Part shown: piece by piece, positions 7,910-60,249 of the stretch
How positions within the stretch are numbered: the first letter of the stretch is position 1
Layout: the number at the start of each line of letters is the position of its first letter
From: Candidatus Woesearchaeota archaeon
GTDB lineage: Archaea > Nanobdellota > Nanobdellia > Pacearchaeales > GW2011-AR1
NCBI GenBank assembly: GCA_964448605.1
Contig: CAYUZV010000005.1
Location: 1,465 to 65,464, forward strand
DNA: 64,000 nucleotides
Direction of reading: 5' to 3'
Translations under genes and position numbers: made by a program
The notes under the pieces: generated by a model
The model's input: the letters and a program-made list of their open reading frames with translations, nothing else
What the model was told of the DNA's origin: nothing
Database searches by the model: none

Positions 7910-7927
7910 TTTATCCTCCTTTTGAAA

Positions 7928-8000
7928 AGCGGAAGGTGAGAGTCGAACTCACTTTTCCCGGACCACAACCGGATGTAATAACCGTTATACGACATCCGCC
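7928..8000 (-). tRNA. tRNA-His (GUG) with encoded G-1
   Basis: Cloverleaf folded by hand. Acceptor GCGGATG/CTTCCGC has one U:U mismatch. Anticodon arm is TCCGG-TTGTGGT-CCGGG and T arm is GTGAG-TTCGACT-CTCAC. There is an extra 5' G and no encoded CCA. Confidence 0.8.
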
Positions 8001-8164
8001 ATATGTAGATTTAGTTAAAGCAGGTATTAAAAAGTTTTTGTTTGTAAAATTATCAGGAAAATAAGCTAAGCTATAATTAGTGATGGGGATAACTCCCTGC
8101 AATTTTATAGCTTGTTTTGTTTTTCATGTTTTAGATAAAATAATTGAGTTTATAAGGTTTGTGT

Positions 8165-8827
8165 TTAAAAATCATTTAAACCTTTTTGTCCTTTATTATC
8201 TGAATATTTCTTGTAAGTTGCCCAAGTTTTTCTGAATATTTCCGGATGTTTGTTCCAGTTGTTTTTTACAAATTCTTTTGTTTTGGGGTCTGATGGATAT
8301 CCTGCACCTGTTTTTCCGTATTTTAGTTTTATTTTATCCATTTCTTCTTCTCTTTTGACTTTTGCGATTATTGAAGCTGCTGAACATATTTGATATTTCA
8401 TATCTGCTTTGTGTTCTACTATTAATTCAATGTTTTTGTTTTTTAAGAGATTTTTTAAATATTCTGTGAATTTTTTTATGTTTGGTGAGGGGCAATCTAT
8501 TATTGCTTTTTCTGGTTTTAGGGTGTTGATAATTTCTGCTTGTTTATGTGCTTCAAGCCAGTTTAGATTCATTGAGTCAGAAAGAAGTGCTTCATCAATC
8601 TCTTTTGGGAGAACTTCTAAGATTTCAAATGAGGAGTTTTCTTTTATTTGTTTATCTAATTGCATTCTTTTTATATGGGATAAAAGTTTTGAGTCCTTTA
8701 ATCCTTGTGGTAGAGTTTGTTTAGAATCATCAATCATAACTCCTGCAATTATTAGGGGTCCTATTACCGGTCCTCTGCCTGCTTCGTCTGTTCCTAAAAT
8801 TTTTGTCATTTTAATTAAAAATAACAA
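8165..8827 (-). CDS. rnhB: Ribonuclease HII
   Basis: LGTDEAGRGPVIGPLIIAGV active-site motif, plus ASIIAK. The likely start is MTKILG at 8806. Confidence 0.85.
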   Translation of the reverse strand: MLFLIKMTKILGTDEAGRGPVIGPLIIAGVMIDDSKQTLPQGLKDSKLLSHIKRMQLDKQIKENSSFEILEVLPKEIDEALLSDSMNLNWLEAHKQAEIINTLKPEKAIIDCPSPNIKKFTEYLKNLLKNKNIELIVEHKADMKYQICSAASIIAKVKREEEMDKIKLKYGKTGAGYPSDPKTKEFVKNNWNKHPEIFRKTWATYKKYSDNKGQKGLNDF

Positions 8828-8885
8828 AGTTTATAAGATTTCCCTGTTTTTTAAACTTAGAATAAAATTGAAGAATATTTAAAAA

Positions 8886-9569
8886 ATGACGAAAAAAGAT
8901 AGAGATATATTGATAGCAGGTATACCTCGAAGTGGCTCTAATTTAGTCAGGAATATTATAAATGAAGTTTATGAAGAAGAAATTGTTAACCATACTCATT
9001 TTTATCATATACCTTATAATAAAATAATAATTACTTACAGAGATATTAGAGATTGTATTGTTTCATTAAGAAGACTTTACAACAGAGATAAAGAAATTAA
9101 AGGAAAACTATCTTTAGTTGAAATGCTAAGATATTCAATTTTATTTAAATACTATCTCTTTTATTTATACAAATGGATTAAATTAAAAGAGAAAAAAATA
9201 TTATGGTTGAGGTATGAAAGATTTTTTCAAAATTATGATTATTTATTTGACAAATTGGAAGATTACTTAGATATTGAAATAAATTATGAAAAAAGAAAAT
9301 TAATAAAGATAAAATTCAATTTAAAAAATCAAAAAAAAATTAGTGATAATATTCAAAATCCAGACGAATTTAAAAATAATTTAATGAAATCGCATATTCA
9401 CAAAGGTGAAATTGAAGGATGGAAAAAATTAATACCGACTAAATGCCATTGGTTAGTTTATTTTTTATTTAGAAGATATTTATTAGACTTTGGATATTCA
9501 AGATATGGTTCTTCAGATTCAAAAGCAATAAAAAAATCTTTATTAAATCCAATTAATATAATTAGATAA
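8886..9569 (+). CDS. Sulfotransferase-family protein (putative)
   Basis: IAGIPRSGSNLVRN resembles the PAPS 5'-phosphosulfate-binding loop. Size and Lys/Tyr-rich composition fit. The assignment is weak. Confidence 0.4.
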   Translation: MTKKDRDILIAGIPRSGSNLVRNIINEVYEEEIVNHTHFYHIPYNKIIITYRDIRDCIVSLRRLYNRDKEIKGKLSLVEMLRYSILFKYYLFYLYKWIKLKEKKILWLRYERFFQNYDYLFDKLEDYLDIEINYEKRKLIKIKFNLKNQKKISDNIQNPDEFKNNLMKSHIHKGEIEGWKKLIPTKCHWLVYFLFRRYLLDFGYSRYGSSDSKAIKKSLLNPINIIR

Positions 9570-30435: not shown

Positions 30436-31806
30436 CTAAGAATCCCTGGGCTCGTTTATATAAAAACTTCGATTTGATGTTGCTTGTTTTATTTTGCCTT
30501 CTTTTTCATAAGTTGCTTTTGCTTCAGGTAATTCAAATCTTCCGACAACTCCGATTTTTGAATAAATTATATATGTGAAAACTCTTTCTTCATCTTTGTT
30601 TAATGATTCCATGTTCCATTCTAATCTTCTGTTTTCTAAATCTATTTTGTCAGGTGTGATTGCTCCGAATTTTTCATATAATTTTACTAATACGGGTATT
30701 TTGTCAATTATGTTTATTTTTTCTAAATATCTTTTTGATTTTGCTCTTAGAGTTACTTTTAGTGCAAATTCTCCTCCTTTTGTTTTAACAAAAGATACAT
30801 TCTTTGTTAAGATTAAGTCTGTTTCAACTGATTTTTTTATGAAATAAATTATTAAAATAATTAAAATAATTATTATTAGTGGATAAAACCAGTTTGTTTT
30901 TGCGATTATTTTTAATTCTTCGTTGGGGATTAGTTCTTTTTTCCAGAGGTATGTTATTTTTAATCCGTTAAGGTATATCTCATCAGGTTCTGTGTTTAAA
31001 GTTGTGAATAGGAAAGATATTATGTTTTTTTCTATTTTTATCTCTGTGGATTTTTTTATGTTTCCGACATTTTTTTTGATTAGTTCTTTTCTTTGTATTA
31101 AAAATCCTTCAGAGGTTTTTTGGAAATCTATTCCTTCTTGTTCGAGGAATCTTATCATTGTTTCTTTTTTTATTTCAATGTTGTCTATTTTTATTTGGAA
31201 ATTTATTAAGTAATTTCCTGCGGTTAATTTGTTTTTATCTTCATTGTTTAGGGGGATTTTTAGTTCAATTGTTTCATAAGGTTCTAAAAATAAATCTGTT
31301 TCATATTCTGAAAATGCAGATATTGAGCTTAATTTTGCTGAAACATTAAATGATGCTGTGTTTTTTATTATTGTGTTTAAGTATTCTGATGAAGGATTTA
31401 TGTTTTCAGGAGTTATTTGGATTAAATCTTTTTTTTCAATTATTTTTAGGGGGAATTCTTCTTCTTGTATTTCTCCTTGAAAATTTCTTAGTTTATATTC
31501 AAAAGAATGAGAGCCTGTTGATGTTTTGAGGATTTCTGGAATTTTTACTTCTACTTTGATGTTTGCTGTTGCATTTTTTCCAATTGTATATTTTTTTTCA
31601 GGAGTTATTTCTAATCCTATTACTGAATAGATTTCAATTGTTTCAGAGTTTTCTTCTAAATTTTTTATTTTTAAATTGAAAATTGCAGGTTTGTCTAAAT
31701 CTTTTACTATTGTGTTTGAGATTGGTTCTGGTGTTACTTCTAAGTTTAGAGCATTAACTAATGTTAAGGTTAATAGTAATACTATTAGTAAAGATAGTTT
31801 TTTCAT
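30436..31806 (-). CDS. Secreted/membrane-anchored surface protein, hypothetical
   Basis: Signal peptide MKKLSLLIVLLLTLTLVNA, beta-rich repeats, TM helix WFYPLIIIILIILIIYFI at about residue 305 and a C-terminal domain. Confidence 0.6.
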   Translation of the reverse strand: MKKLSLLIVLLLTLTLVNALNLEVTPEPISNTIVKDLDKPAIFNLKIKNLEENSETIEIYSVIGLEITPEKKYTIGKNATANIKVEVKIPEILKTSTGSHSFEYKLRNFQGEIQEEEFPLKIIEKKDLIQITPENINPSSEYLNTIIKNTASFNVSAKLSSISAFSEYETDLFLEPYETIELKIPLNNEDKNKLTAGNYLINFQIKIDNIEIKKETMIRFLEQEGIDFQKTSEGFLIQRKELIKKNVGNIKKSTEIKIEKNIISFLFTTLNTEPDEIYLNGLKITYLWKKELIPNEELKIIAKTNWFYPLIIIILIILIIYFIKKSVETDLILTKNVSFVKTKGGEFALKVTLRAKSKRYLEKINIIDKIPVLVKLYEKFGAITPDKIDLENRRLEWNMESLNKDEERVFTYIIYSKIGVVGRFELPEAKATYEKEGKIKQATSNRSFYINEPRDS

Positions 31807-31935
31807 TTTTAAGGTAGTAATTTTTAATATATAAAAATATATTTGATGGAAGATAGAGGTTTAGAGAGGTATGAGAAATGAGAACATTTTAACACTAGTG
31901 AAAATTTAGGATAAAAGAGGGCTTCCAGCCATCAA

Positions 31936-32010
31936 TGAGCCATCCAGGATTTGAACCTGGGACCCCCACCTTATAAGAGTGGTGCTCTAACCTGGCTGAG
32001 CTAATGGCTC
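31936..32010 (-). tRNA. tRNA-Ile (UAU)
   Basis: Acceptor GAGCCAT/ATGGCTC, D arm GCTC..GAGC, anticodon arm CCACT-CTTATAA-GGTGG (anticodon TAT) and T arm CCAGG-TTCAAAT-CCTGG. Confidence 0.85.
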
Positions 32011-32217
32011 ATACACTAAAATCAATATATTTCTTAGTTTTAAAGTTATTGGTTTGAGAAATTCCGAGCCGGACTTCAAACTCCCAAGCTTGTTCGTTAT
32101 ATGTTGTTATTTAATCTCGCAAACTTGCTCGTAAGGCTCTCCACAAAATATTGGTAAGTGAAAAATTTTATTGGTATAAAATATATCTTACTTAAAATTA
32201 AACCTAAAAAATAGTTA

Positions 32218-34191: not shown

Positions 34192-34863
34192 TTATTCTTT
34201 TCCTCCTAAAAACTTTTCTATCTTTTCTGTTAATCCGTCTGAAATTGATTCTTGGACAATTAAATGAATTGCATTTTCTGCTTTTTTTTCACCTTGGTCA
34301 TCACCTTTCATCCAGATGAATCCGTTTTGTCCAACTGTTATATCTGTTTTTGTTTTGTTTTTTATTAAATTTATCATGCTTCCTTCTCTTCCAATTATTC
34401 TTGGAACTTTGTGAGGATTTATTTTTATTATTCTTCCTCCTTCTAATTTTCCTAATCCTCTTGATTTTAGTGTTAAATCAACTCCTCCTTTTTTAACACC
34501 CATTATTTTCATGCTTAAAACATCTCCGATGTCTGCGAATTGTGCTATATCATTTTTGTTTATGTATTTTGAACATTCTGATAAGGGTAGAAATGATGAA
34601 AAAGGTCCTCCGATATCAATCATCCAACCACTGAAATTTATATCTTCAACTCTTCCAATTACAGTGTTTCCTCTTCTTGGTTCAAAGATACCTGATACTG
34701 GGATTATTTTTACAACTCTTCCGTTTATTTCAGCAAGTCCGAATCTATGTGCAATTATTTCTTCACCTTCTTTTTTAGTAAAATCTCCTGGAAGATAATC
34801 GTCTCCAGATACAATTGTCTCTCCTGGAATTACTAATTTTCTTTCTGATTTTTCTTTTGTCAT
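34192..34863 (-). CDS. rrp4: Exosome RNA-binding subunit Rrp4 (S1 + KH)
   Basis: N-terminal domain VIPGE.I, an S1 region GNTVIGRVEDINFSGWMIDIG and a KH region KVPRIIGREGSMINLIK. Confidence 0.85.
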   Translation of the reverse strand: MTKEKSERKLVIPGETIVSGDDYLPGDFTKKEGEEIIAHRFGLAEINGRVVKIIPVSGIFEPRRGNTVIGRVEDINFSGWMIDIGGPFSSFLPLSECSKYINKNDIAQFADIGDVLSMKIMGVKKGGVDLTLKSRGLGKLEGGRIIKINPHKVPRIIGREGSMINLIKNKTKTDITVGQNGFIWMKGDDQGEKKAENAIHLIVQESISDGLTEKIEKFLGGKE

Positions 34864-35207
34864 TTTATTTCTCCTTTTAATCCTCTTTCCATGTAATCTA
34901 TTTCTGATTTTGTTCCTATTGAGTAAATAGCTCTTGAAGAATCTGCTCTTGGGGCTTCTGATTCGTAGAATATTTCATATGCCTTTCTAAATTGTTTACC
35001 TTCTAAACATTCTCTAAATTGGGTATAGGGATTGGTTCTTCTATTTTCTCCTTTTATTGCCTCATAAACTTCTCTTCTATGGACAGGAATTTCAGAAGGG
35101 GCGTCTATTGCTAATCTTATTTTATCTCCTCTTATATCTACAACAGTTACAATTATATCGTCTCCTATGATTATACTTTCGTCTTTTTTTCTTGATAGTA
35201 CTAGCAT
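34860..35207 (-). CDS. csrA: CsrA/RsmA-family RNA-binding protein with ~55-aa C-terminal extension
   Basis: MLVLSRKKDESIIIGDDIIVTVVDIRGDKIRLAIDAPSEIPVHRREVYEAIKGENRR aligns by eye along its full length with E. coli and B. subtilis CsrA. There is an ATGA overlap with rrp4 and a 1-nt gap after SBDS. Confidence 0.8.
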   Translation of the reverse strand: MLVLSRKKDESIIIGDDIIVTVVDIRGDKIRLAIDAPSEIPVHRREVYEAIKGENRRTNPYTQFRECLEGKQFRKAYEIFYESEAPRADSSRAIYSIGTKSEIDYMERGLKGEIK

Positions 35208-37090: not shown

Positions 37091-37131
37091 ACAAGAAAGA
37101 TTTAAAAATACAAGAATATGAGTTTTATCAT

Positions 37132-37203
37132 GCCTCGGTAGTTTAGTGGTTAGAATATGGCCCTGTCACGGCCAAGGCCCGAGTTCGATTCTCGGTCGGG
37201 GCG
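37132..37203 (+). tRNA. tRNA-Asp (GUC)
   Basis: Acceptor GCCTCGG/TCGGGGC, anticodon arm TGGCC-CTGTCAC-GGCCA and T arm CCGAG-TTCGATT-CTCGG. Confidence 0.9.
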
Positions 37204-37311
37204 TAGTACCATTTTGGCACATTGGTGGGACTCATTTTTGTATGGATATTGAGAAGAGTGAGAATTGAGGTGGCTGAGATGAGGATTAAACAAAAAATTT
37301 AAGTTTAATTG

Positions 37312-37363: not shown

Positions 37364-38380
37364 TTGTTTTTTGCAATTTCTATGGTATATATTTACAAAA
37401 AGAAAATCGGAAATAGGAATTATTATTACCTTAGGGCGTCTGAAAGAAAAAATGGAAAAGTGATGGTAAAAGATTTGTCATATTTAGGTAGCACTCTCGA
37501 AGAAGTAAGAAAAGCAATTGAAAATCTTCCAAAATATAAGAATGAGATAAGAAAAACTTACAAAACAATTCATAATTTTCTTGAGTCAAATAGATATTTA
37601 GAAAAAATAAGTAAGATGAAATTAAAACAAGATGATTTTCTAAAAGAAAAATTATTGAAAATTGAAGCTTGTAAAATGCATTATGAAAATGAATTTAATA
37701 AACAAGATTTTTTGACGAAAAAAGAAATATGGAAAAATTTCATAATTGAATATGCTTTTAATACTACATCTATAGAGGGAAATACCATAAATCTTGCTGA
37801 AGCAAAAGAATTGTTGGAAAATGAAAAAACTCCTAAAAATAAAACCTTGAGAGAGATTTATGATTTGCAAAATACAGAGAAGGTATTTAATGAATTAATA
37901 GAGGAGAGAGGGAAAATGACAAACGATTTTATTATAAGTATTCATAAAAAATTAATGGATAATATTGATAAGAGGGTTGGTTACAGAACCCAAGAGGTTA
38001 GAGTAATTAGGGCAAACTTTAAAGCAACTCCTGCACCTTATGTTAAAACAGATATGGATTTATTATTAAAATGGTATGAAGATAATAAAAAAAATCTTCA
38101 TCCTTTAGTTTTAGGAATTGTATTTCATCATAAATTTGAAAAAATACATCCATTTATGGATGGAAATGGTAGAACTGGAAGAATTTTGTTAAATCACATT
38201 TTGATAAAAAATAACTATCCGCCCTTGATTATAAAAAATAAAAATAGGAATAAATATCTGAGTAATATGAGAAAAGCAGACAAATCTGAAATTAGTAAAT
38301 TTAATATTGAAGATTATCAGGATTTAATTGATTTTGTTTCTAATGAAATGTTGGAGGGTTATTGGAATATATTTCTTTGA
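37364..38380 (+). CDS. fic: Fic-domain protein (AMPylase family)
   Basis: Canonical Fic motif HPFMDGNGRTGR within IVFHHKFEKIHPFMDGNGRTGRILLNHIL. The likely start is ATG 37382. Confidence 0.85.
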   Translation: MFFAISMVYIYKKKIGNRNYYYLRASERKNGKVMVKDLSYLGSTLEEVRKAIENLPKYKNEIRKTYKTIHNFLESNRYLEKISKMKLKQDDFLKEKLLKIEACKMHYENEFNKQDFLTKKEIWKNFIIEYAFNTTSIEGNTINLAEAKELLENEKTPKNKTLREIYDLQNTEKVFNELIEERGKMTNDFIISIHKKLMDNIDKRVGYRTQEVRVIRANFKATPAPYVKTDMDLLLKWYEDNKKNLHPLVLGIVFHHKFEKIHPFMDGNGRTGRILLNHILIKNNYPPLIIKNKNRNKYLSNMRKADKSEISKFNIEDYQDLIDFVSNEMLEGYWNIFL

Positions 38381-38683
38381 TTTATTAATTTAATTTCGAC
38401 AAGATTTATAAATTAAACTGCTCTAATCAATTTAATATAAATATAAACGGATAATTATTTCACCCACTTATATTGGCAAAATGCAGAGGTGTTCGGTCAG
38501 GTATGTTATCTTTTATGATTTTAATGAGTGGAATAATTTAAAATTGGGATTATTTATTCAAAAATACCTAAGATAAATTAAATTTGATTTATGTTTTGGA
38601 TTTATATCATAAGAAGAAACAATAAAGTTTTATGAAGGAATTTTTGTATGTGTTAAATGAATAATATTTGCCTTATTTCAAAA

Positions 38684-38754
38684 TGGGGACAGGGGGAATT
38701 CAACCCCCATTCCCGGCTCTGGAGGCCGGTGTATTAGCATTATACGATATCCCC
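38684..38754 (-). tRNA. tRNA-Trp (CCA)
   Basis: Acceptor GGGGATA/TGTCCCC, anticodon arm CCGGC-CTCCAGA-GCCGG and T arm GGGGG-TTGAATT-CCCCC. Confidence 0.85.
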
Positions 38755-38833
38755 AGTGTTATATTGGGAATTTTAACCTTTTAAAAGGTTTTGATTTTCG
38801 TTAGATATATAAATCTCTGTTTATTTTTAATTT

Positions 38834-39253
38834 ATGGAAATAATTTTAGATACAAATTTTATTGTATATTGTGCAAAAGAGAAACTTGATTATGTTGAAG
38901 AGATTGAGAAATTGTTTAATGAAAATTATGAAATAGTTGTTCCTAAACAGGTTATTGAGGAGCTTGAAAAAATTAAAGAGAAAAAGAAAGAGAGAATTCC
39001 TTTGTTTAAGAGAACTTCTCGTTATAGAAAAACGACTGGTCGTGATAAGAGGGCTGCTGATTTGGGTTTGCAGATTTTGGAGAAAAGTAGGATAAAAAAG
39101 ATTAATATTAAAGGTGAGAGTGTTGATGATGCGATTGTTAATTTAGGTAAAAAGGGAAATAATATTGTTGCTACACTTGATAAAGAGATGAGAGGTAGAT
39201 TAGATAGAGTGATTTTATTAAATAAAAATAAGAAGTTGATTTTGAGTAATTAA
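38834..39253 (+). CDS. PIN-domain ribonuclease, Fcf1/Utp24-like
   Basis: ILDTNFIVY (Asp 1), VVPKQVIEELE and IVATLDKEMR fit the Fcf1-type PIN pattern. Confidence 0.65.
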   Translation: MEIILDTNFIVYCAKEKLDYVEEIEKLFNENYEIVVPKQVIEELEKIKEKKKERIPLFKRTSRYRKTTGRDKRAADLGLQILEKSRIKKINIKGESVDDAIVNLGKKGNNIVATLDKEMRGRLDRVILLNKNKKLILSN

Positions 39254-40146
39254 TCGGGGAAAGATTGTTTGTAGTCAGGATAGGTTTGACATATTTTTCT
39301 GGTTAATTTTTCTATTGCTCTCTTATGTATCTGCATTATTCTTGGAGGAGATAAATTATATTCAACTCCGATTTCTCTGAAATTTAATTGAGGTGTGCCT
39401 TCTAAACCATATCTTTTTTTGATTATCTCTTTTTCCCTTGGGTTTAAAACTCCATTATTTACTAAATCCATTATTTCTATGCTTTTTTGAACCAGTTTTT
39501 CTAAGGGATTTTTTTCTTTTGAAGTTAATTGAAATGGAAAATTTTCATCATCAGGGTGAATCTTTACTTTTTTCTGCTGTATCAATCTCAACCATTTTAA
39601 ATGTTCTAATTTCACTCTTGGTCTTTTATTACTTTTTATGCCTTTTTTTTGCAAATAATCAAGCACTTCTTCAGGAGTGGGATTTCTTTGAGATTCTGAT
39701 TTTAAAATATCTTCTGCTTCTCTGATTTCAGGGATTTTACTTGCTATACCTCCTGGAATTTTTCCGAATTTTCGAGTTTTAAATGTCAGATATTTTACAA
39801 ATTCTGTTTCTAAAATTTTATGATAATAAGTTGCAAATTCACTTGTTGCATCATAATCTTTTGCAGTTATGCATCCTGCAAGATTGCATAATGACCTCAT
39901 TTCTTCAAGGTTGTCTTCAAAATCTTCTTTAGAAAGAAAGTTAGATTTTCTTGCTAATCTTCTTGCACTGCTTTCAAAAAGAGGAATATTGATTTCTATC
40001 AGCTCTTGTCTTGCATCATCATATAGTTGTTTGTATCTTCTTTCTAATTTAGGATTGTGTTTATTTAAAACATAAAAATTGATTATTCTTCCGAGATATT
40101 TGTTTCTATTTTTTATTTTTATTACTTCTTCGGATTTTAGTGACAT
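39250..40146 (-). CDS. Sigma-70-family-like protein (regions 2, 3 and 4 recognisable, divergent)
   Basis: LIEINIPLFESSARRL (r2.1-like), FATYYHKILETEFVKYL (r2.3/2.4-like), KIPGGIASKIPEIREAEDILKSESQRNPTPEEVLDYL (r3.0-like) and LNPREKEIIKKRYGLEGTPQLNFREIGVEYNLSPPRIMQIHKRAIEKLTR (r4.2 HTH). Confidence 0.7.
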   Translation of the reverse strand: MSLKSEEVIKIKNRNKYLGRIINFYVLNKHNPKLERRYKQLYDDARQELIEINIPLFESSARRLARKSNFLSKEDFEDNLEEMRSLCNLAGCITAKDYDATSEFATYYHKILETEFVKYLTFKTRKFGKIPGGIASKIPEIREAEDILKSESQRNPTPEEVLDYLQKKGIKSNKRPRVKLEHLKWLRLIQQKKVKIHPDDENFPFQLTSKEKNPLEKLVQKSIEIMDLVNNGVLNPREKEIIKKRYGLEGTPQLNFREIGVEYNLSPPRIMQIHKRAIEKLTRKICQTYPDYKQSFPD

Positions 40147-40166
40147 TTAATACAGAAATCATAAGC

Positions 40167-40174
40167 TTTATAAA
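40167..40174. promoter_or_regulatory. Single palindromic TATA box (TTTATAAA) shared by divergent sigma-like gene and rpoE
   Basis: The intergenic region is 52 bp. The TATA lies 20 nt from the sigma-like ATG (40146) and 24 nt from the rpoE ATG (40199), so both mRNAs would be leaderless or nearly so. Confidence 0.5.
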
Positions 40175-40198
40175 TGCTTCTTTTTATGTAACTTTAAT

Positions 40199-40774
40199 AT
40201 GTTCTATATTGTAGAGGTTCAGGATTATGTAAGGGTAGAACCCCGATTATTCGGGCTTAAAACTAGCGATGCTGTTGCTCGGCAGTTGCAGGAGATTTAT
40301 GCAAGTTATCATGATAAGGAGATTGGAGAGGTTATTGGAATAATTTCTATTTTAGAAGTGGGTGATGGAATTATTATTCCTGGAGATGGTTCTGTTTATT
40401 ATAATTCAAAGTTTAAATTACTTGCATGGAAACCTGAATTGCAGGAATTAGTTCATTGTATTGTTGATGAGATAACTGACTTTGGTGCATTTATGAATTT
40501 AGGAGTTATGAAAGGTATGATTCACATTTCGCAGACAATGGATGATTATGTTAGTTTTTCAAGTTCAAATGCTCTTTTGGGAAAAGATTCAAAAAAAGTT
40601 TTGAAAAAGAAAGATGCTTGTTTAGCAAGAATTGTTGCTTTATCATATAAAGGAGATAATCCTAAGATTGGTTTGACAATGAGACAACCTGGTTTGGGTA
40701 AATTGGAATGGATTGAAGAAGAAAAGAAAAAAGCAAAATCAATGGTTAAAAAAGTTGAGAAGGGGGAGAAATAA
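40199..40774 (+). CDS. rpoE: RNA polymerase subunit Rpo7 (RpoE)
   Basis: MFYIVEVQDYVRVEPRLFG.., an S1 domain ..VDEITDFGAFMNLG...GMIHISQ. Confidence 0.85.
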   Translation: MFYIVEVQDYVRVEPRLFGLKTSDAVARQLQEIYASYHDKEIGEVIGIISILEVGDGIIIPGDGSVYYNSKFKLLAWKPELQELVHCIVDEITDFGAFMNLGVMKGMIHISQTMDDYVSFSSSNALLGKDSKKVLKKKDACLARIVALSYKGDNPKIGLTMRQPGLGKLEWIEEEKKKAKSMVKKVEKGEK

Positions 40775-40960
40775 ATGGCAAAAGAAAAAGCTTGTAAAAA
40801 TTGCAGATTAATTTATGAAGGTAGTGAATGTCCTCATTGTCAGAATAAAAATATTTCTGATAGTTTTAAGGGGAAAATTGAGATTATTGATTCTGAAAAG
40901 TCAGAGATTGGAAAAGAATTGAAAGTAAATAAAAACGGGCTTTATGCGATAAAGTTATGA
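40775..40960 (+). CDS. spt4: Transcription elongation factor Spt4 (RpoE'')
   Basis: Zn ribbon KACKNCRLIYEGSECPHC. The ATG directly follows the rpoE stop. Confidence 0.85.
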   Translation: MAKEKACKNCRLIYEGSECPHCQNKNISDSFKGKIEIIDSEKSEIGKELKVNKNGLYAIKL

Positions 40961-40967
40961 TTCTAAG

Positions 40968-41366
40968 ATGGAAGTTAAAAAAGAATCTATAAATGAACTT
41001 TTTAAGAGAAAGGAGATGCTTGTTGATTTAGAGAATGAGAAGAATCCGAGTTTTGATGAGGTTAGGAAAATGGTTGCTGAAAAGGAAAAGATTGGTGAAG
41101 AGTGTGTTGATGTGAAGAATGTTATGGGCGGTTTTGGTAAGAGTAATTTTATTTCAGAAGTTTATGTTTATGATTCAGGGAAAGATTTAGAAAATATGAA
41201 AAAATTAGAAATGACAAAGAAGCAGAGGAAAGAGGGGGCTAAGGTTGAAGAGGGGGCAGGAGGTTCTGGGAGTGAGGGTAGTGAAGAGACTAAAACTGAA
41301 GAATCATCTAAGGAAGAAGAGAAATCTGCTGAGGAAAATAAAGAAGAAGTTAAAGAAGGAGAATAA
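40968..41366 (+). CDS. rps24e: Ribosomal protein S24e with acidic C-terminal tail
   Basis: NELFKRKEM.V.LE....PS..EVRK.VAEK.......V.V.....GFGK......V.VYDS. Confidence 0.75.
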   Translation: MEVKKESINELFKRKEMLVDLENEKNPSFDEVRKMVAEKEKIGEECVDVKNVMGGFGKSNFISEVYVYDSGKDLENMKKLEMTKKQRKEGAKVEEGAGGSGSEGSEETKTEESSKEEEKSAEENKEEVKEGE

Positions 41367-43192: not shown

Positions 43193-45007
43193 GTGTGTCC
43201 TAGGTTTAGCATTTTCGAAAGTCTTATAGACTCTTCTATAATAAGAATATTAATAAGGTTGTTTGATTTATATAATAAAATGAATGAGCAAGGAAATATT
43301 CCTGAAACTGTAATGATTACATATAATTACTATAAGGAAGGCAAATCAATAAAAGAAATTGCGAAAATAAGATCACTAGCTAAAACGACAATTCAAGGAC
43401 ATTTTGAAAAATTAATATTAAATGAATTAGTTAAATTAAATGAAATTGTTGATGAAGACAAAAAAGAAAAGATTTTATTAGTTTTAAGAAAAGAATTTCT
43501 TGGAAGTTTAGAAGAAATAAAAAATAAATTAGATAATAACGTCAGCTATGGAGAAATTAAATATGTTTTAGCTTTTCTAAAATTACAAAAAAGAGAAAAG
43601 AATAAAAAAAAGAGTTTTCAGGAAGAACCTCAAATAATTCCTGAGAGAGAATTAAGGAACCCTCCACAATTTAACAAAGGGATATTAACAGTTAAAGAAC
43701 TTACAAAATATATTAAAAATATTTTAGAATCAGATAGTAAATTAGATCATATTTTTGTAAAGGGCGAAATATCTAATTTTAGAAAAGTATCTTCAGGACA
43801 TATTTATTTTATTTTGAAAGATGAAGAAAGTCAAATTAGATGTGTGTTTTTTAGTAGATCTAATAAAAAATTGGATTTTGAAATTGAAGATGGAATGAAG
43901 GTTATTGTAAGAGGGAGTGTTGAAGTTTATATGCCTCGAGGAGAATATGATATAATTGTGGAAGAAATGCATCCAGATGGTTTAGGAGTCTTGCATTTAG
44001 CATTTACTCAATTAAAAAAGAAGTTAGAAAAAGAGGGTCTATTTTTAAATCAATATAAAAAAATTATTCCTAAATTTCCAAAAAAAATAGGGGTTATCAC
44101 TTCTGAATCAGGGGCTGCATTGCAAGATATCTTAAAAGTTTTAAGAAAAAGATATCCTATTGTTAGAGTACTACTTTTCCCGACACTTGTTCAAGGCGTA
44201 GAAGCTACTGGTTCAATAGCAAGGTCTATTGAATTAGCAAATCAATTTTCAGATATTGATGTTATTATTCTTGGCAGAGGTGGGGGATCTTTGGAAGATT
44301 TATGGTCATTTAATAAGGAAATAGTTGCAAGAGCAATATTTAGATCTGAAATTCCTATTATTTCAGCAGTAGGGCATGAAACTGATTTTACAATTGCAGA
44401 TTTTGTTTCAGATAAAAGAGCACCCACTCCCTCAACTGCTGCAGAGATAGCTGTTCCAGATATCAGTGATCTTTATGTTCAGATAAAGCACTTACAAAAA
44501 AGATCTTTTTCTTCTGTTCAGAGCATTCTTAACTTGTATAGATCCCAGATAGATCAGATTAGCAGTAGAGTAATTTTTAAGAAACCTTTAGAAATCGCCC
44601 ATAAAAATTATAGGAAATTAGATCAAATTTCTTCTAATTTAAAAAATATAATTATTGAATATATCCAGGGTAAGAAAGAGGAATTGCGAGTAATTGAGTC
44701 TAATTTTATTACCTTAAATCCAAAAGCTAAATTGCAATCTTATAGAATGGAATTGAATCAAAAATCATATAAGTTAATAAGTAATTTACGAAAAATTATA
44801 GAATTAAAAAGAAAGAATCTAGAGTTACTTCAATCAAAAATTGAAGCCTTAAATCCAAAAGCAATCCTAAAAAGAGGGTATGGTATTATAACTAGTAAAA
44901 ACAAAATCTTAATAAACTCCTCAGACATAGAGAAAGGAGAGGATATTAATGTTATCTTACATAGGGGGAAGATAGATGCCAAAGTTAAAAAAACCTACCT
45001 TGAATAA
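43193..45007 (+). CDS. xseA: Exodeoxyribonuclease VII large subunit with N-terminal HTH extension
   Basis: OB-fold region VKGEISNFRKVSSGHIYFILKDEESQIRCVFF, catalytic region IGVITSESGAALQDIL, ILGRGGGSLEDLWSFN, SAVGHETDFTIADFV.D.RAPTPS and a coiled-coil tail. The likely start is ATG 43280. Residues about 30-150 carry an HTH (KSIKEIAKIRSLAKTTIQGHFEKL). Confidence 0.85.
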   Translation: MCPRFSIFESLIDSSIIRILIRLFDLYNKMNEQGNIPETVMITYNYYKEGKSIKEIAKIRSLAKTTIQGHFEKLILNELVKLNEIVDEDKKEKILLVLRKEFLGSLEEIKNKLDNNVSYGEIKYVLAFLKLQKREKNKKKSFQEEPQIIPERELRNPPQFNKGILTVKELTKYIKNILESDSKLDHIFVKGEISNFRKVSSGHIYFILKDEESQIRCVFFSRSNKKLDFEIEDGMKVIVRGSVEVYMPRGEYDIIVEEMHPDGLGVLHLAFTQLKKKLEKEGLFLNQYKKIIPKFPKKIGVITSESGAALQDILKVLRKRYPIVRVLLFPTLVQGVEATGSIARSIELANQFSDIDVIILGRGGGSLEDLWSFNKEIVARAIFRSEIPIISAVGHETDFTIADFVSDKRAPTPSTAAEIAVPDISDLYVQIKHLQKRSFSSVQSILNLYRSQIDQISSRVIFKKPLEIAHKNYRKLDQISSNLKNIIIEYIQGKKEELRVIESNFITLNPKAKLQSYRMELNQKSYKLISNLRKIIELKRKNLELLQSKIEALNPKAILKRGYGIITSKNKILINSSDIEKGEDINVILHRGKIDAKVKKTYLE

Positions 45008-54244: not shown

Positions 54245-56677
54245 GTGAAAATGGTTGAAGAGGTTGAGATTAAAAATAGGAAAGTATATTTTTTTGTTTT
54301 GATGTTAATTGTTGTTGTCTTGTTTGGTTTGAATTTTGTTTTTGCTTGGGATTTTTATGGATATACTTATGATGTTGATGGAAATATCTTATACAATACT
54401 ACTATAAATATCTCAATTTGGGATATGTCTGGAGGTTCTTCAAACTTGGTTGGATCTAATTTTTCTTATTCTAATGAATCAGGATGGTTTAATTTTAGTA
54501 TTAGTGGAAATTCGAGTTGGATGTATAAACCTATTATTAGGCATTTTCAGGAGAATAAAACTGATGGAAGCACTCCTATAGATTACATAGGACAATCTCT
54601 TCCAATGTTTCCTTATTCTCATTTTTTTAATACAACAGATATCAAATTTTATCTGAGAGATGCAGGAACTATAAATATAACTGCAATTAATTCTACTGGA
54701 GATAGAATTAATTTTACATATACAGTTAAGGACACAAAGTTGGGTTTTCCTGTTGAGGAAAATAATAATGAAGTTTCAGAAGGAATTGTTTATGTTCCAA
54801 GAGATAGGAATTATTCAATTACAATTTTTCCTCGTACAGATATGAGAGCTATTTATAATTGGAATAATTTTTCATCAGGTTCTTCATATACTTCTTCTGA
54901 TTTATTGAGTTATAATGCAACTACACATACTATTCAAAAAACATTTAATGTTACGACAAATTTACTAAGAATAACAGGGCATATTCAAAACACAAGTGGA
55001 GATGATTTTGCAGATTGGAATGAGTTTAATGTTGTTGCATTTTTCTTAGCCTCTGGAGATCATGTTTTTTTAGGTGATAGAGTTTCAATGCCTTATAATA
55101 TGAGTGCGTGGAATAATGGGCAAACTGATGAATATAATTTAACTTCAGGTTTTTACAATATAACTCTTCCAGGTCCTGAAGAATCAGCAACATATATTTT
55201 ATTTGCAACAGCAAGAAACGGAACAAATTATTATGGAGGGTATAAAAATATAACTCTAGATTATTCTTCTAGTAGTGATGAATTAAATTTTACAATGTAT
55301 CCTTTAATGTCAGGTGATTGGGGTTCTGCAAATAGCAATATGTCTTTAGATGATGCAAATACTTGGGAAGAAGTGAATATCTCTACTGCAAAACAGCAAT
55401 TTAGCTTAATTAATTCTACAGATGATTTAGTAACACAATCTAATGCATTTATAGAAGCAAAAGTAGATTATTCTGATTATGGAGCTAAGGAGTTTATCTT
55501 TGGGACACAAGTTTCTTCAGGAGGGTCTAGTTTTTATTTGCCTTTGTTGAATATTACTGGAATTAAAGAGATGAATATTTATTCTCAGACATATGCTCCT
55601 CGAAAGATTGGAACAAGAACTGCATCACAAATTTTATCAAATCCTAATATTACATTGTCAACTTTTAATCCTGGAGATATTGGTTCAACATTGGCAAAAT
55701 CCCAGATTAGTGTTGCTTTATATAAATCTAATTTAAGTTGTGATATGCCTGTCCCAGGAAGTGGGTGTAGTGTTCAGAATTCTGCAGACATGGATAATTT
55801 TAATCCTTTAAATTCAGTTATAGGGGGTGGTGCTTTAAGTTTTAGAATGGGTATGTTGAGTGCAGGAATAATTGTTCATTATGTTAATGTTGATATGCTT
55901 GCATCAGGACCTCCTGATGCATCTTTTGATAATGCTGCAACAGAAACCACTTCAAGTGGTTTTGATTCTGCAATGAGATTTGGAAGTAATGGACCTACGA
56001 TTTATGATTATGTTTTAATTTCAATGCCTTATACTGAAGGAAGTACTTCTACAACTGGTTTAAATGAAAATGCAGATATTAATCTTAGTATTCCAAATTT
56101 GTATGATGATGATTGGAATGTTATATGGAACACTGCTAATAATGGAACAAATGCAAGTGCATTAGCAGGTAATCAATCTCATTATTCAGATGAACAAAAT
56201 GAATGGCAGACATTGTTAGAGAGTGTTAATTGCACTCGTAATGCAAGTGGATTGAATAAAACAACTCCTTGTTATATTGATACGAGTAATAATAAGATTT
56301 GGGTAAGATTACCTCATTTCTCAGGAACCGGACCTTCTGTTTCCGGAAGTGTGATAACTGCTACAAGCAGTTCGAGCAGTAGTTCTTCAGGAGGTGGTGG
56401 AGGAATTGTTACATCATCAACAGATTCAAATGAAACAACTAATGAGAGTGTTTCTTCAAGCAGTAGTTTATCTGGAGGAGGTTCTGCTGAAAGTGGAGAT
56501 ATTGTTCAGAAATCTCCTGATGAGATTTTAAGTAGCGAGGTGGGGCGAGGATGGATTATTGGAATAGGATTAATGCTTTTAGCATTTATTGTTGTTATTA
56601 TTGTTTGGATTAAAAAAAGGGGAAATGCTGGGATTGAAAATATTCATAAGAGTAGAGGGAAAGGAAAGAAGAAGTGA
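54245..56677 (+). CDS. Large surface glycoprotein candidate with C-terminal TM anchor
   Basis: N-terminal TM/signal VYFFVLMLIVVVLFGLNFVFA and more than 30 N-x-S/T sequons. A Ser/Gly linker SSSSSSSGGGGG is followed by TM helix WIIGIGLMLLAFIVVIIVWI and KKRG..KGKKK. Confidence 0.65.
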   Translation: MKMVEEVEIKNRKVYFFVLMLIVVVLFGLNFVFAWDFYGYTYDVDGNILYNTTINISIWDMSGGSSNLVGSNFSYSNESGWFNFSISGNSSWMYKPIIRHFQENKTDGSTPIDYIGQSLPMFPYSHFFNTTDIKFYLRDAGTINITAINSTGDRINFTYTVKDTKLGFPVEENNNEVSEGIVYVPRDRNYSITIFPRTDMRAIYNWNNFSSGSSYTSSDLLSYNATTHTIQKTFNVTTNLLRITGHIQNTSGDDFADWNEFNVVAFFLASGDHVFLGDRVSMPYNMSAWNNGQTDEYNLTSGFYNITLPGPEESATYILFATARNGTNYYGGYKNITLDYSSSSDELNFTMYPLMSGDWGSANSNMSLDDANTWEEVNISTAKQQFSLINSTDDLVTQSNAFIEAKVDYSDYGAKEFIFGTQVSSGGSSFYLPLLNITGIKEMNIYSQTYAPRKIGTRTASQILSNPNITLSTFNPGDIGSTLAKSQISVALYKSNLSCDMPVPGSGCSVQNSADMDNFNPLNSVIGGGALSFRMGMLSAGIIVHYVNVDMLASGPPDASFDNAATETTSSGFDSAMRFGSNGPTIYDYVLISMPYTEGSTSTTGLNENADINLSIPNLYDDDWNVIWNTANNGTNASALAGNQSHYSDEQNEWQTLLESVNCTRNASGLNKTTPCYIDTSNNKIWVRLPHFSGTGPSVSGSVITATSSSSSSSSGGGGGIVTSSTDSNETTNESVSSSSSLSGGGSAESGDIVQKSPDEILSSEVGRGWIIGIGLMLLAFIVVIIVWIKKRGNAGIENIHKSRGKGKKK

Positions 56678-57552: not shown

Positions 57553-60249
57553 TTGGAGGTTATGATAAAAAATATTGAAAGGAGGTTAAAAAATATGTTA
57601 TTTAATTTTAAAAAAATAGCTTCGGTATTGACAAGTGCAGTTATGCTTTCTAGTACTATTGGATTTGCAGCTGCTGCAACCTATCCAGCTCCTTTTGTAG
57701 TTGATGGACTTGCAGATGGTGCTGTTGTTTATGGTGCTAATGCTGCTATTAGTGATGTTACTGCTGCTATTGATTTGCAACAAAAACTTGGAGCTCTTGC
57801 TACAAGTGGAACTGCTACAACTAGTGCTTCTGTAAGTGGTGAAGCTGCTGCTCTTTTTTCAGGAGGAACAAAACTATATGTTAATGATAGTTTAAATTCT
57901 GTTAAAAGTGTTTTAACAAAAAGTGAGTTGCCTATTGTTTTAGCTGATCAGAGTTTTTCTGGAAATGTGGATGCTACTGTAACACATTCAATTAATATTG
58001 GTTCAAATCCAAGAATTACTTTTGATAAACAGCCAACAACTTCAGATGACCCTAATTATGCTTTAACAACTAGTACAACTCAGGCAAATTACATTTACAA
58101 TGCAACTGCCACATTTAATAAAGCAGTTAATTTAAGTAATTCTGATTCAGAAGGAGAAACTATAACCCTTTTTGGACAAGATTTTACAATTGCTGCTTCA
58201 AGTGATTCAGATACGTTAGTATTGTTAAAAAGTGCTGAAAAAATAAGTTTATCAAGTGATAATCCTACTGCTGATGTTACTGTTGGAGGTGAAACCTACA
58301 CTGTTGAATTAGTTTCAGCATCAGATGATGCTGCTACAATTAAAGTTACAGATAGTGCTGGAACTTCTGCAAGCAGAGAAATTAGTGAAGCTGCATCTAA
58401 AAAGGTTAATGATGTTACTATTGCAGTTACAACTGCTGATGAAACTAATATAAAGTTATCAGCAAGTATTGTTGTAGGTGCTGACAAGTTAACTCTTGAA
58501 GATGGTTCTTCTGTTACTGAAGGTGATGATGCAACTACTGTAGATGGAACTGTTGTAGATTTTGGAACTACAGGAGAGAGTACTGAAAATATGACTTCAT
58601 TAACAATTAGTGTATATGCTTCAGAATCTGATGAAGATGCTATAAAGGCAGGAGAGGTTTTTACAGACCCTGTTTTTGGTAATTTTAAACTGGATTTTTC
58701 TGGTTTTAATATTGAGTCAGATCCAATTACTGCAGGAGATGTTTCTTCAAGAGAAACAATAACTGTTGCTCCGAGTAGTGATGATAAGTTAGATTTAACT
58801 TTTACAGACCATAGAGGTCATGAAAAAACAATTACATGGGTAGTTAATAGCACAGGTTCTAAAACTCCTCAACTTATGGCTGATGATGATTATAGAAATA
58901 TCAGTGTTTTTGAATCTGAAGCAATTCATGATGAGGAAATAGTTGTTGTAGGTAATGAGGATGAAGGATATTTATTGAAGTTGTCAAATGTTAAGAATCA
59001 ATCTTCGGGATATAGCAGTGATATTGCTCAATTCAAGGATGTTTTTACAGATGATACTTACGATACTGTGTGGACTGCTGATGGTTCTGGAACAATCACT
59101 ATTGGAGGTAAATCTTATTCAGTTACACTGGCAGGTGCGCATACTGTGGCAACAGAAGCTTATACTGTTAGATTAGATTATCCTGATAGTAGTGGAAATG
59201 GAGTTGCTGTAATTTACCCAACAATTCAAACTTCAAAAGGTGCTAAGATTGGATTGTATGAACCAATAACTATAAGTTTGAATAATTGGGATGGTGCGAG
59301 CAATGCTTTAACAGAGCTTAAATTTCCTAAGGGAGATGGTTATACTAGTGTTGAAAGTATTAGTTATTTCAATGATACTAATTCTCGTTGGAACTTTACT
59401 ACTTCAGCAGGGGTTCAAACGCTTGATATGAATGATACCAGTGGTGCAGATTCGTTTACTGCAACAATTGGACAGTTAAAATATAATTTTACTACTACAA
59501 GTGGAAATAGTACTAAAATTATGCTTTTGAATGTTGCAGAGAATGCTAATATTGATGAACCTGCTATGGTTATCTTTGAAGAAAAAGATGATAATTCAGA
59601 TTATCAAGCATTAATTGTTGAAGTTGAAGAAGGTGGTTCTGGTGATGATGGAGTTGGTGTTGATAGTGTTGAAGATACTTGGAGTAATGCAGGGACTAGT
59701 TGGTCTAAAACAAGAGCAAGTGATAGCAAGATGGAAGACAGAGCTGACTTGTGGGGGACTATAGTCACTATTGATGGTTCTGATTCAGATCAGAAATCAG
59801 CTACAATTAGTTATCCTGATGAGCAAATTTATGCACAGATTTACATGGCTGAAGAATCTGCTTCAATTACTCCTGGTTCAACAGGAAGTAGTTCAAGTGG
59901 AGGACAGGTAATGATTGTTACTGATAGTGAAGTAAGTACTGTTGCAAGCAAGAATTTGCTTGTAGTGGGTGGTAGTTGTATTAATACTGTTGCTGCTAAG
60001 ATTTTAGGATTTACTAGCCCTACATGTGGTGCTGATTTTACAGCTGCTACTGAAGTGGGTGAAGGTGAATATCTAATAAAAGTAGTTACTTCTCCATATA
60101 GTGATGATGCTACTGCTATGTTAGTTGCTGGTTATGAAAAAGCTGATACTCTTAATGCTATTGCTAAAGCTAAAGAAGGAGTTAGTACTGACATAGGATA
60201 CAGTCAAGTATATCCTATTACTAGCACTGGAACTGAAACAGAAGAGTAA
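57553..60249 (+). CDS. S-layer protein candidate
   Basis: The likely start is ATG 57595, with SD GAAAGGAGGTT 8 nt upstream. Sec signal MLFNFKKIASVLTSAVMLSSTIGFAAA. It is Thr/Ser/Ala/Asp-rich and nearly Cys-free except for one C-terminal pair. It has about a dozen sequons and a long oligo-T terminator. Confidence 0.6.
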   Translation: MEVMIKNIERRLKNMLFNFKKIASVLTSAVMLSSTIGFAAAATYPAPFVVDGLADGAVVYGANAAISDVTAAIDLQQKLGALATSGTATTSASVSGEAAALFSGGTKLYVNDSLNSVKSVLTKSELPIVLADQSFSGNVDATVTHSINIGSNPRITFDKQPTTSDDPNYALTTSTTQANYIYNATATFNKAVNLSNSDSEGETITLFGQDFTIAASSDSDTLVLLKSAEKISLSSDNPTADVTVGGETYTVELVSASDDAATIKVTDSAGTSASREISEAASKKVNDVTIAVTTADETNIKLSASIVVGADKLTLEDGSSVTEGDDATTVDGTVVDFGTTGESTENMTSLTISVYASESDEDAIKAGEVFTDPVFGNFKLDFSGFNIESDPITAGDVSSRETITVAPSSDDKLDLTFTDHRGHEKTITWVVNSTGSKTPQLMADDDYRNISVFESEAIHDEEIVVVGNEDEGYLLKLSNVKNQSSGYSSDIAQFKDVFTDDTYDTVWTADGSGTITIGGKSYSVTLAGAHTVATEAYTVRLDYPDSSGNGVAVIYPTIQTSKGAKIGLYEPITISLNNWDGASNALTELKFPKGDGYTSVESISYFNDTNSRWNFTTSAGVQTLDMNDTSGADSFTATIGQLKYNFTTTSGNSTKIMLLNVAENANIDEPAMVIFEEKDDNSDYQALIVEVEEGGSGDDGVGVDSVEDTWSNAGTSWSKTRASDSKMEDRADLWGTIVTIDGSDSDQKSATISYPDEQIYAQIYMAEESASITPGSTGSSSSGGQVMIVTDSEVSTVASKNLLVVGGSCINTVAAKILGFTSPTCGADFTAATEVGEGEYLIKVVTSPYSDDATAMLVAGYEKADTLNAIAKAKEGVSTDIGYSQVYPITSTGTETEE

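Follow-up and report, generated by a model that had tools for sequence, protein, structure and literature searches.

A sigma-70 homologue with eroded promoter-recognition residues beside the rpoE operon of a DPANN archaeon

Introduction

Archaeal and eukaryotic RNA polymerases start transcription with TBP and TFB (TFIIB), while the bacterial polymerase uses a sigma factor. What, then, is a gene of bacterial sigma-70 type doing next to a polymerase subunit gene in an archaeon? The question is raised by a 64 000-nucleotide stretch of a Candidatus Woesearchaeota genome (contig CAYUZV010000005.1, positions 1465 to 65 464; 'the window' below, always at its full length), in which a 298-codon reading frame lies divergently from rpoE, the gene for the RNA polymerase stalk subunit Rpo7. 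The encoded protein has the homology and the fold of a sigma-70 factor, the gene occupies a conserved locus with a defined promoter geometry, and residues for binding core polymerase and for handling the −10 and −35 elements have been lost. Because of these losses, the window copy is most likely no longer a classical sigma factor. We give about an even chance to the reading that it is a lineage-specific transcription regulator, which would act in the archaeal cytoplasm through its helix-turn-helix domains and be expressed divergently from the rpoE promoter region. A first-pass annotation, made from the sequence alone, had presented a sigma factor in an archaeon as a surprise; this was overstated, as such genes have already been published (PMC8204110) and named in NCBI annotation.

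A full-length sigma-70 homologue

The gene, its parts and the adjoining intergenic region are as follows.

39250..40146, minus strand: sigma-70-family-like gene, 298 amino acids, ATG start, regions 1.2 to 4 in bacterial order
40027..40146, minus strand: N-terminal segment (residues 1-40) with an RNxxLGxxIQxY motif, aligned to region 1.2 of bacterial RpoD
39772..40026, minus strand: eroded sigma-2 domain (residues 41-125), aligned in order to sigma-2
39631..39771, minus strand: sigma-3-like segment (residues 126-172), including KIPGG...NPTPEEV; weak Pfam Sigma70_r3 match, E = 0.042
39481..39630, minus strand: variable linker equivalent to region 3.2 (residues 173-222); predicted local distance difference test score (pLDDT) <50 at residues 193-211
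39292..39480, minus strand: sigma-4 helix-turn-helix domain (residues 223-285), Pfam PF04545, the best-conserved part
40147..40198, no strand: divergent intergenic region of 52 bp between the sigma and rpoE start codons

Pfam Sigma70_r4 (PF04545) scored 41.3 bits (cutoff 24.1) at residues 233-281, Sigma70_r3 (PF04539) a weak 14.4 bits, below its cutoff of 25.3, and Sigma70_r2 (PF04542) gave no match in the protein. The NCBIfam sigma-70 superfamily model TIGR02937 passed its cutoff (48.7 against 42.9 bits) over nearly its full length, with residues 44-284 covering model positions 1-164 of 165, and RpoD_Cterm aligned at model positions 1-227 of 238 to residues 45-284. Comparison with PDB sequences using phmmer matched 58 sigma factors, the top match being Clostridioides difficile SigA (7l7b_F, E = 7.6e-9), in which HMMER aligned residues 17-282 to 124-377 of the chain; the RIP...PTPEE segment can likewise be aligned to sigma factors of known structure. 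AlphaFold2, run on a 10-sequence family alignment, gave an all-helical model with a mean pLDDT of 77.4 and values of 81-94 over the sigma-2 region and residues 1-120. Structural comparison with the PDB using Foldseek returned sigma factors from holoenzyme or initiation complexes as all 50 of the top 50 hits (probability 1.0, E = 3.7e-7 to 7.6e-6, approx. 270-355 columns aligned); the TM-score was only approximately 0.25, as would be expected of a free model set against an extended, polymerase-bound sigma factor. The agreement of profile, structure-sequence and fold comparisons confirms that the window protein is a full-length sigma-70 homologue and not just a region-4 helix-turn-helix.

The first-pass annotation had proposed such a homologue from four motif pairings with bacterial sigma factors, and these were reproduced both by HMMER against the solved factors and by MAFFT. 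The profile searches that it suggested gave the graded result above, with Sigma70_r4 passing, Sigma70_r3 weak and Sigma70_r2 unmatched while TIGR02937 passed almost from end to end; and in place of the generic region-4 match that might have undone the proposal, the alignment runs from residue 17 to 282. Its further concern, a mis-join of the contig between 39.2 and 40.2 kb, can be set aside. An independent assembly (Logan contig SRR7048228, 1394 bp) matches window positions 38843-40236 with 100% identity and spans both junctions, G+C content is uniform at approximately 0.30, and other samples show this gene order again. In DNA of 30% G+C, the probability that a frame of 298 codons stays open by chance is approximately 1e-11, as estimated from base composition. 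No paralogue of the gene was found by tblastn within the window.

The window is archaeal and of DPANN type, so that profiles, fold and neighbours together uphold the claim of a sigma-70-family protein in an archaeal genome. Besides the genes next to sigma, it encodes, farther upstream, proteasome alpha, SBDS, three exosome subunits (Rrp4, Rrp41 and Rrp42) and Rpo6, all archaeal. The RpoE protein is 62-89% identical to RpoE of 80 loci from Pacearchaeota, Woesearchaeota and Nanoarchaeota, and close RpoE relatives are limited to these groups save for a few contigs binned under bacterial names. L089, L112 and L117 are archaeal rpoE loci (83-84% identity) in genomes labelled Omnitrophota, 'bacterium' and Dojkabacteria, and are probably mis-binned. 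No bacterial-type core RNA polymerase was found in the 64 kb, only the archaeal Rpo6, Rpo7 and Spt4.

A conserved position between PIN and rpoE

The sigma-like gene is bordered by the following genes.

38834..39253, plus strand: PIN_9 (Fcf1-like) gene, Pfam PIN_9 E = 1.8e-16, convergent with the sigma gene
40199..40774, plus strand: rpoE (Rpo7), RNA polymerase stalk subunit, Pfam SHS2_Rpb7-N and S1
40775..40960, plus strand: spt4 (rpoE2), Pfam Spt4 E = 4.1e-12
40968..41366, plus strand: ribosomal protein S24e, Pfam Ribosomal_S24e, last gene of the conserved cluster inside the window

Its 3' end overlaps that of the PIN gene by 4 nt, and its ATG (40146, minus strand) faces that of rpoE (40199, plus strand) across 52 bp; the coordinates of the open reading frames (ORFs) bear out both distances as first described.

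Relatives of the protein were sought in several ways. When 1.84 billion representative proteins were searched exhaustively with HMMER, 2069 matched at E <= 1e-3 but only four at E <= 1e-30, the closest relatives being P0004 (46% identity), P0005 (41%) and P0006 (33%), followed by a set at 24-33%. A word-indexed homologue search with the window protein returned only itself and two bacterial RpoD sequences; with an alignment of the clade to which the protein belongs (see below), the same kind of search was dominated by bacterial RpoD and returned P0016 as the sole clade member. A pattern-based search with the sigma alignment A2 found nothing in species genomes and one locus in metagenomes. A set of 80 loci came from a search with RpoE, the product of the conserved neighbouring gene, against one genome per species.

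The order PIN, antisense sigma, rpoE is present in 14 of the 15 clade loci examined (the window, L001, L083, L085, L087, L088, L096, L119, L164, L165, L166, L171, L172 and L173; L165 is a second contig with the same sigma gene as L164, and the L171 contig ends within the gene beyond sigma). On the rpoE side the clade loci continue with spt4, S24e and S27ae, and the rpoE-spt4-S24e order recurs in L001, L083, L164, L166, L171 and L172. In the fifteenth locus, L167, the sigma gene adjoins PIN and is parted from rpoE by a cassette of approximately 6 kb with ThiF, JAB and AAA genes. This cassette (L167 1-4582, uncultured archaeon LFW-165_1) encodes ThiF, Prok-JAB, proteins of 571 and 141 amino acids and an AAA ATPase, and looks like a ubiquitin-like conjugation or defence module. 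In L083 two sigma-like genes stand in tandem in the slot (7210-7983 and 8001-9065). C-terminal extensions are seen in P0008, P0014 and P0016, the last of which (the second L083 copy) gains a second Sigma70_r4 match. An extra ORF of 69-79 amino acids lies between rpoE and spt4 in L001 (3876-4115), L164 (1762-1971) and L165 (1657-1866), and is not present in the window.

PIN immediately precedes rpoE in 24 related loci, both genes reading the same way and standing approximately 35-70 bp apart, and this is evidently the ancestral state. The sigma gene occupies the slot in five species genomes only, all with RpoE at least 81% identical to that of the window; in one further genome (L105/L167) it lies beside PIN. 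Other occupants are a family of approximately 200 amino acids in sense orientation, one of approximately 135 amino acids in antisense and a CmpB-like gene. The PIN-rpoE slot is thus a variable insertion point between two conserved genes. The longer orphan family was seen in L090, L093, L095, L103, L108, L109, L121 and L164, and the shorter in L088, L102, L104, L116, L118 and L122; neither matched Pfam, PADLOC or PHROG, and members are 18-38% identical between genomes whose RpoE proteins are each approximately 75-89% identical to that of the window. We considered the 135-residue orphan as an anti-sigma partner and rejected it: it co-occurs with sigma only in L088 and is also found where sigma is absent. 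The first-pass annotation had read the proximity to rpoE as a sign of possible co-regulation and had asked whether the pairing was conserved in related genomes. It is, at 14 of 15 loci, but since the slot also holds unrelated orphan genes, adjacency is weaker evidence of functional coupling than was supposed.

A TATA box between the two start codons

Within the intergenic region lies one further element.

40167-40174, no strand: palindromic TATA box TTTATAAA, 20 nt from the sigma ATG and 24 nt from the rpoE ATG

The window contains 23 copies of this octamer where 12.3 +/- 3.7 would be expected, a count that none of 100 shuffles reached. It lies 20-24 nt before the ATG of four other window ORFs, Rpo6 among them, a spacing that fits leaderless mRNAs as the usual form here, and it is the usual TATA box of the organism. 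In 19 of the 80 related loci (R)TAA(G/C)C-TTTATAAA stands exactly 24 nt from the rpoE ATG, and in three more it stands at 21-22 nt. Most loci with this element before rpoE have no sigma gene, so the box belongs first to rpoE. The geometry given in the first-pass annotation, one palindromic box at 20 and 24 nt from two start codons, is correct; what changes is its history, as the box is the ancestral rpoE promoter and predates the sigma gene.

On the sigma side, the distance from box to ATG is 20 nt in the window and 21 nt in L166 and L083. L087, L096 and L119 also have 21 nt, provided that translation starts at Met5; the box cannot serve the annotated Met1 of these loci, which is just 9 nt away. 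One symmetrical TATA box used in both directions would therefore be a recurrent arrangement, likely in the window and not universal. Matches to sigma-70-type promoters were not enriched at 30-50 kb of the window (87, against 93.6 +/- 9.7 expected).

Residues kept and lost

Residues of E. coli sigma-70 that bind core polymerase, recognize and melt the −10 element or recognize the −35 element are well established, and its numbering is used here. Clade members were aligned with bacterial references; the E. coli sigma-70 row agrees with the database sequence P0003. Three motifs illustrate the comparison, with L096 and L119 as the near-canonical members of the clade.

Region 2.2: E. coli DLIQEGN; L096 DLIGYGN; L119 ELTGYGN; window EEMRSLC
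Region 2.3/2.4: E. coli FSTYATWWIRQAITR; L096 FSTYATFWIRQSISR; L119 FTTYASGWIKQSITR; window FATYYHKILETEFVK
Region 4.2: E. coli TRERIRQIE; L096 TRERIRQIE; L119 TRERIRQLE; window SPPRIMQIH

The core-binding residues Q406, E407 and N409 (DLIQEGN) are not kept in the window copy, which has EEMRSLC at the aligned positions. The −10 residues compared were Y430, W433, W434, Q437 and T440, and most of this signature is gone from the window copy (FATYYHKILETEF against FSTYATWWIRQAI): T429 and Y430 alone are kept in this region, W433 is replaced by K, W434 by I and Q437 by T, and FSTYATWWIRQ has become FATYYHKILET. H455 and E458 are lost as well. The poor conservation of core-binding region 2.2 and of the −10 residues that had been noted from the window sequence is therefore real, and it extends to the −35 residues R584, E585 and R588, which are not kept either (SPPRIMQ against bacterial TRERIRQ). 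Position 267, equivalent to R584, is P in the window copy and R in 17 of the 22 clade members, so the altered recognition helix is a recent change peculiar to this copy. The clade as a whole presents an erosion gradient, from the near-canonical −10 and −35 residues of L096 and L119 to the window copy, its least sigma-like member.

What is retained lies elsewhere. Over the 22 members, the conserved positions are structural core residues in all three domains. N15, L18, G19 and Y25 of the N-terminal motif are conserved in 17-19 of the 22, and P131, I141, L148, P156 and E160 of the sigma-3-like segment are conserved across the clade. Mean pairwise identity is highest in sigma-4 (38%), followed by sigma-3 (26%), sigma-2 and the N-terminus (25% each) and the linker (17%). 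Two motifs are specific to the clade, the N-terminal RNxxLGxxIQxY and an NNGVL before region 4.1, and the window copy has both.

Origin and divergence

The positional orthologues L085, L087, L088, L096 and L119 and the first L083 copy pass the Pfam cutoffs for both Sigma70_r2 and Sigma70_r4. Between sigma-carrying loci, pairwise identity is 75-89% for RpoE and 55-80% for PIN, and only 23-42% for the sigma-like protein. Despite this fast divergence, the sigma reading frame is intact in every locus examined; the gene is constrained enough to stay open and its product folded. In a neighbour-joining tree, the locus-defined sequences and eight database matches form one clade apart from bacterial RpoD-like matches, and three of the eight added sequences were then confirmed in the same PIN-rpoE slot.

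The most canonical member is L096, labelled by NCBI as 'sigma-70 family RNA polymerase sigma factor [Candidatus Pacearchaeota archaeon]'; it shares 35-42% identity with primary RpoD proteins of many bacterial phyla. We looked for a bacterial donor and could name none, as the best matches of L096 are primary RpoD proteins of many phyla with similar scores. A viral source was also considered and rejected: a scan of IMG/VR viral contigs gave 97 matches, all to generic phage sigma factors and mostly in region 4 only, none of them in the clade. Most simply, a primary-type sigma gene without region 1.1 would have been captured once and then passed down vertically, with repeated loss and fast divergence. 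The window gene would accordingly descend from a bacterial primary-type sigma-70 factor comprising regions 1.2 to 4, acquired once by a sublineage of Pacearchaeota-type DPANN archaea. It would have been inserted in antisense between PIN and the rpoE-spt4-S24e-S27ae operon, beside the rpoE TATA box, and inherited at that junction from then on while diverging very fast.

Two other proteins among the best matches to the window protein have a different make-up: P0007 (L170 309-2078) and P0010 (L168 4001-6817) contain 7 and 11 tandem copies, respectively, of a sigma region-4-like helix-turn-helix. P0010 is encoded on a 990-kb contig, beside a transposase and an MmeI-type restriction gene. The two proteins were considered as support for DNA binding by sigma-4 alone in this lineage and were set aside.

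Possible roles of the window protein

How might the present gene work? The first-pass annotation had offered an exapted DNA-binding regulator, a modulator of RNA polymerase or TFB and a factor directed at a bacterial polymerase; the residue losses of the window copy speak against the last. The gene would most likely be expressed as a leaderless mRNA from TTTATAAA, the box that also drives rpoE. The window copy would represent a derived branch of the clade that has kept the three-domain sigma fold and lost the residues that serve in binding core polymerase, melting the −10 element and reading the −35 element. The protein would bind DNA through the helix-turn-helix units of sigma-4 and sigma-3 and may also contact the archaeal polymerase.

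Several observations weigh against this account of a captured factor turned lineage-specific regulator. A neighbour-joining tree without bootstrap support is weak evidence for one clade. The fast-evolving orphans in the PIN-rpoE slot, together with the L167 cassette, mean that adjacency to rpoE may reflect an insertion hotspot. The spacing from box to sigma ATG is 25, 29 and 38 nt in L172, L164 and L001, and L085, L088 and L173 have a second TATA-like element approximately 20 nt before the sigma ATG, so promoter sharing is not universal. With SPPRIMQIH in place of the clade consensus TRERIRQIE, the recognition helix in the window copy may bind DNA poorly. Finally, retention of sigma-2 and sigma-3 would be unexpected if DNA binding alone mattered.

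We regard it as unlikely that the gene is accessory cargo of an insertion hotspot, be it selfish, conflict-related or decaying, with an incidental position beside rpoE and no part in host regulation. Its distribution has that character: five assessable species genomes have sigma in the slot and one more has it beside PIN, against 24 in which PIN abuts rpoE, and the slot holds three unrelated fast-evolving families as well as the L167 ThiF/JAB/AAA cassette. The very fast divergence of sigma, its tandem duplication in L083 and a nearby Fic gene similar to the defence candidate SoFic point the same way. Against it stand the frames, intact in every locus examined although the genomes are AT-rich and stop-rich, and the conserved core residues in every domain. 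No integrase, repeat or mobile-element hallmark was seen beside the sigma gene in the loci examined, PADLOC yielded only a generic sigma similarity to MzaA, and the IMG/VR viral contigs scanned contained no clade member, only generic phage region-4 matches. Were the cargo reading true, the locus would be an example of the quick erosion of acquired bacterial genes in reduced symbiont genomes.

Another reading, which we consider improbable, is that the protein still works with the archaeal polymerase, as an initiation or clamp-binding factor whose gene is expressed together with those of the stalk subunit and Spt4. Through sigma-2 it would dock on the clamp coiled-coil of Rpo1, the site used by TFE and Spt4/5, and so direct or modulate initiation at some promoters. 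Bacterial sigma-2 and NusG and archaeal TFE and Spt5 do all use homologous clamp coiled-coils. In an extended form of this idea, which we would be surprised to see borne out, members of the clade bind both RNA polymerase and promoter DNA as alternative initiation or clamp-modulating factors beside TBP/TFB, and the rpoE-spt4 linkage and shared TATA box would couple sigma dosage to that of the stalk and Spt4. The three-domain architecture and a remnant of the region-3.2 loop have been kept over deep divergence, and 14 of 15 loci retain the linkage to rpoE-spt4. L096 and L119, which are only 40% identical to each other, keep near-canonical residues in regions 2.3/2.4 (FSTYATFWIRQSISR) and TRERIRQIE, which suggests selection on classical sigma activities. 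Yet even these canonical members have changed Q406 and E407 (DLIGYGN, ELTGYGN), and in the window copy the motif is gone altogether. The flap-tip helix by which the bacterial polymerase holds sigma-4 is not known to have a counterpart in the archaeal enzyme. The gene is dispensable, since most close relatives are without it, and the window shows no sigma-70-type promoter signal. If true, this reading would give the first sigma-like factor acting on a eukaryote-type polymerase.

Least credible by far is an effector delivered to a bacterial host or neighbour, whose core polymerase it would bind and redirect as phage sigma factors do: direct reading of the N-terminal sequence shows neither a signal peptide nor a secretion motif, the window copy lacks the core-binding, −10 and −35 residues, its predicted expression is from a housekeeping archaeal promoter region, the known DPANN hosts are archaeal, and no route is known by which a cytoplasmic protein could be delivered into a bacterium. 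The idea draws on the canonical clade members, which keep −10 and −35 residues whose sole known use is with bacterial RNA polymerase, on a likeness to phage sigma factors (phrog_351, E = 2e-12 for the window protein and 8e-35 for L096) and on the mostly symbiotic life of DPANN archaea, as described in PMC8204110.

Other genes of the window

A second bacterial-type regulator in a core archaeal operon is a homologue of CsrA, the global RNA-binding regulator of bacteria (34860-35207, minus strand, 115 amino acids, Pfam E = 1.8e-24), placed between SBDS and Rrp4 in the exosome superoperon. Just upstream of the PIN gene, a Fic-domain protein (37364-38380, plus strand) that resembles the defence candidates SoFic and PDC-S04 (PADLOC E = 4.6e-37) is flanked by tRNA-Asp (37131-37204) and tRNA-Trp (38683-38755); related loci have other genes at this position. 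Exonuclease VII large subunit is encoded in bacterial-type form at 43193-45007 (plus strand, Pfam E = 5e-100), with an N-terminal HTH_40 domain. Three ORFs had no Pfam match at E <= 1e-5: 54245-56677 (plus strand, 810 amino acids), 57553-60249 (plus strand, 898 amino acids) and 30436-31806 (minus strand, 456 amino acids). The tRNA-Ile at 31935-32011 (minus strand) has a predicted TAT anticodon, as against the CAT-derived form usual in archaea.

Comparison with known systems

Functionally, the closest archaeal analogue of sigma is TFB with TBP, which recognizes promoters and helps to open DNA (PMC7289017). No sequence kinship with this system is detectable, all significant matches of the window protein being to the sigma-70 family. 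The phage sigma factors of PHROG 351 are, like the window protein, compact, without region 1.1 and often highly diverged, and phrog_351 matches residues 36-283 of it (E = 2e-12). They differ in setting, as the window gene lies in a conserved chromosomal housekeeping cluster and not on a viral contig. A 2025 study has annotated rpoS-like genes in DPANN viruses (PMC12647753). MzaA, the sigma-70-family component of the MZA anti-phage system, shows similarity over sigma-2 and sigma-4 (PADLOC E = 2e-6 with the window protein and 3.6e-27 with L096); unlike the window protein, it has approximately 700 residues with extra domains and belongs to a multi-gene system, none of whose partner genes is present. 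Membership of a defence system was therefore rejected, the PADLOC match being a generic sigma similarity.

With the group 1 and 2 factors of bacteria (RpoD, SigA and RpoS) the window protein shares the domain order 1.2, 2, 3, 3.2, 4 and the predicted fold, and HMMER aligns residues 17-282 to the SigA and RpoS structures. The canonical locus-mates are closer still, keeping FSTYATFWIRQ and TRERIRQIE at 35-42% identity to RpoD. In contrast to bacterial RpoD, the window protein is encoded by an archaeon, lacks region 1.1 and the non-conserved insertion, carries the clade's N-terminal and NNGVL motifs and goes undetected by Pfam Sigma70_r2.

The nearest precedent is that of Castelle et al. 2021 (PMC8204110), who reported sigma-70 genes in DPANN genomes, particularly Woesearchaeota (family fam00359); in the text accessible to us, mis-binning is excluded, anti-sigma factors are said not to have been found and the mechanism is described as unclear. 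As in the window, the genes they describe lie on contigs with archaeal markers, and no anti-sigma partner is seen. That text reports presence only, with no mention of the PIN/rpoE position, the shared TATA box, the fast divergence or the loss of signature residues. Fixation at PIN/rpoE, the shared TATA geometry, the contrast in rate with the neighbours and the gradient from canonical to eroded were not found in the literature searched, and the conserved locus and erosion gradient appear to be new. A fixed position by an RNA polymerase subunit operon, predicted co-expression and a natural series of variants make the role of DPANN sigma-70 homologues testable at this locus: the series from L096 and L119 to the window copy could separate a sigma fold reused on a eukaryote-type machine from an ordinary DNA-binding regulator.

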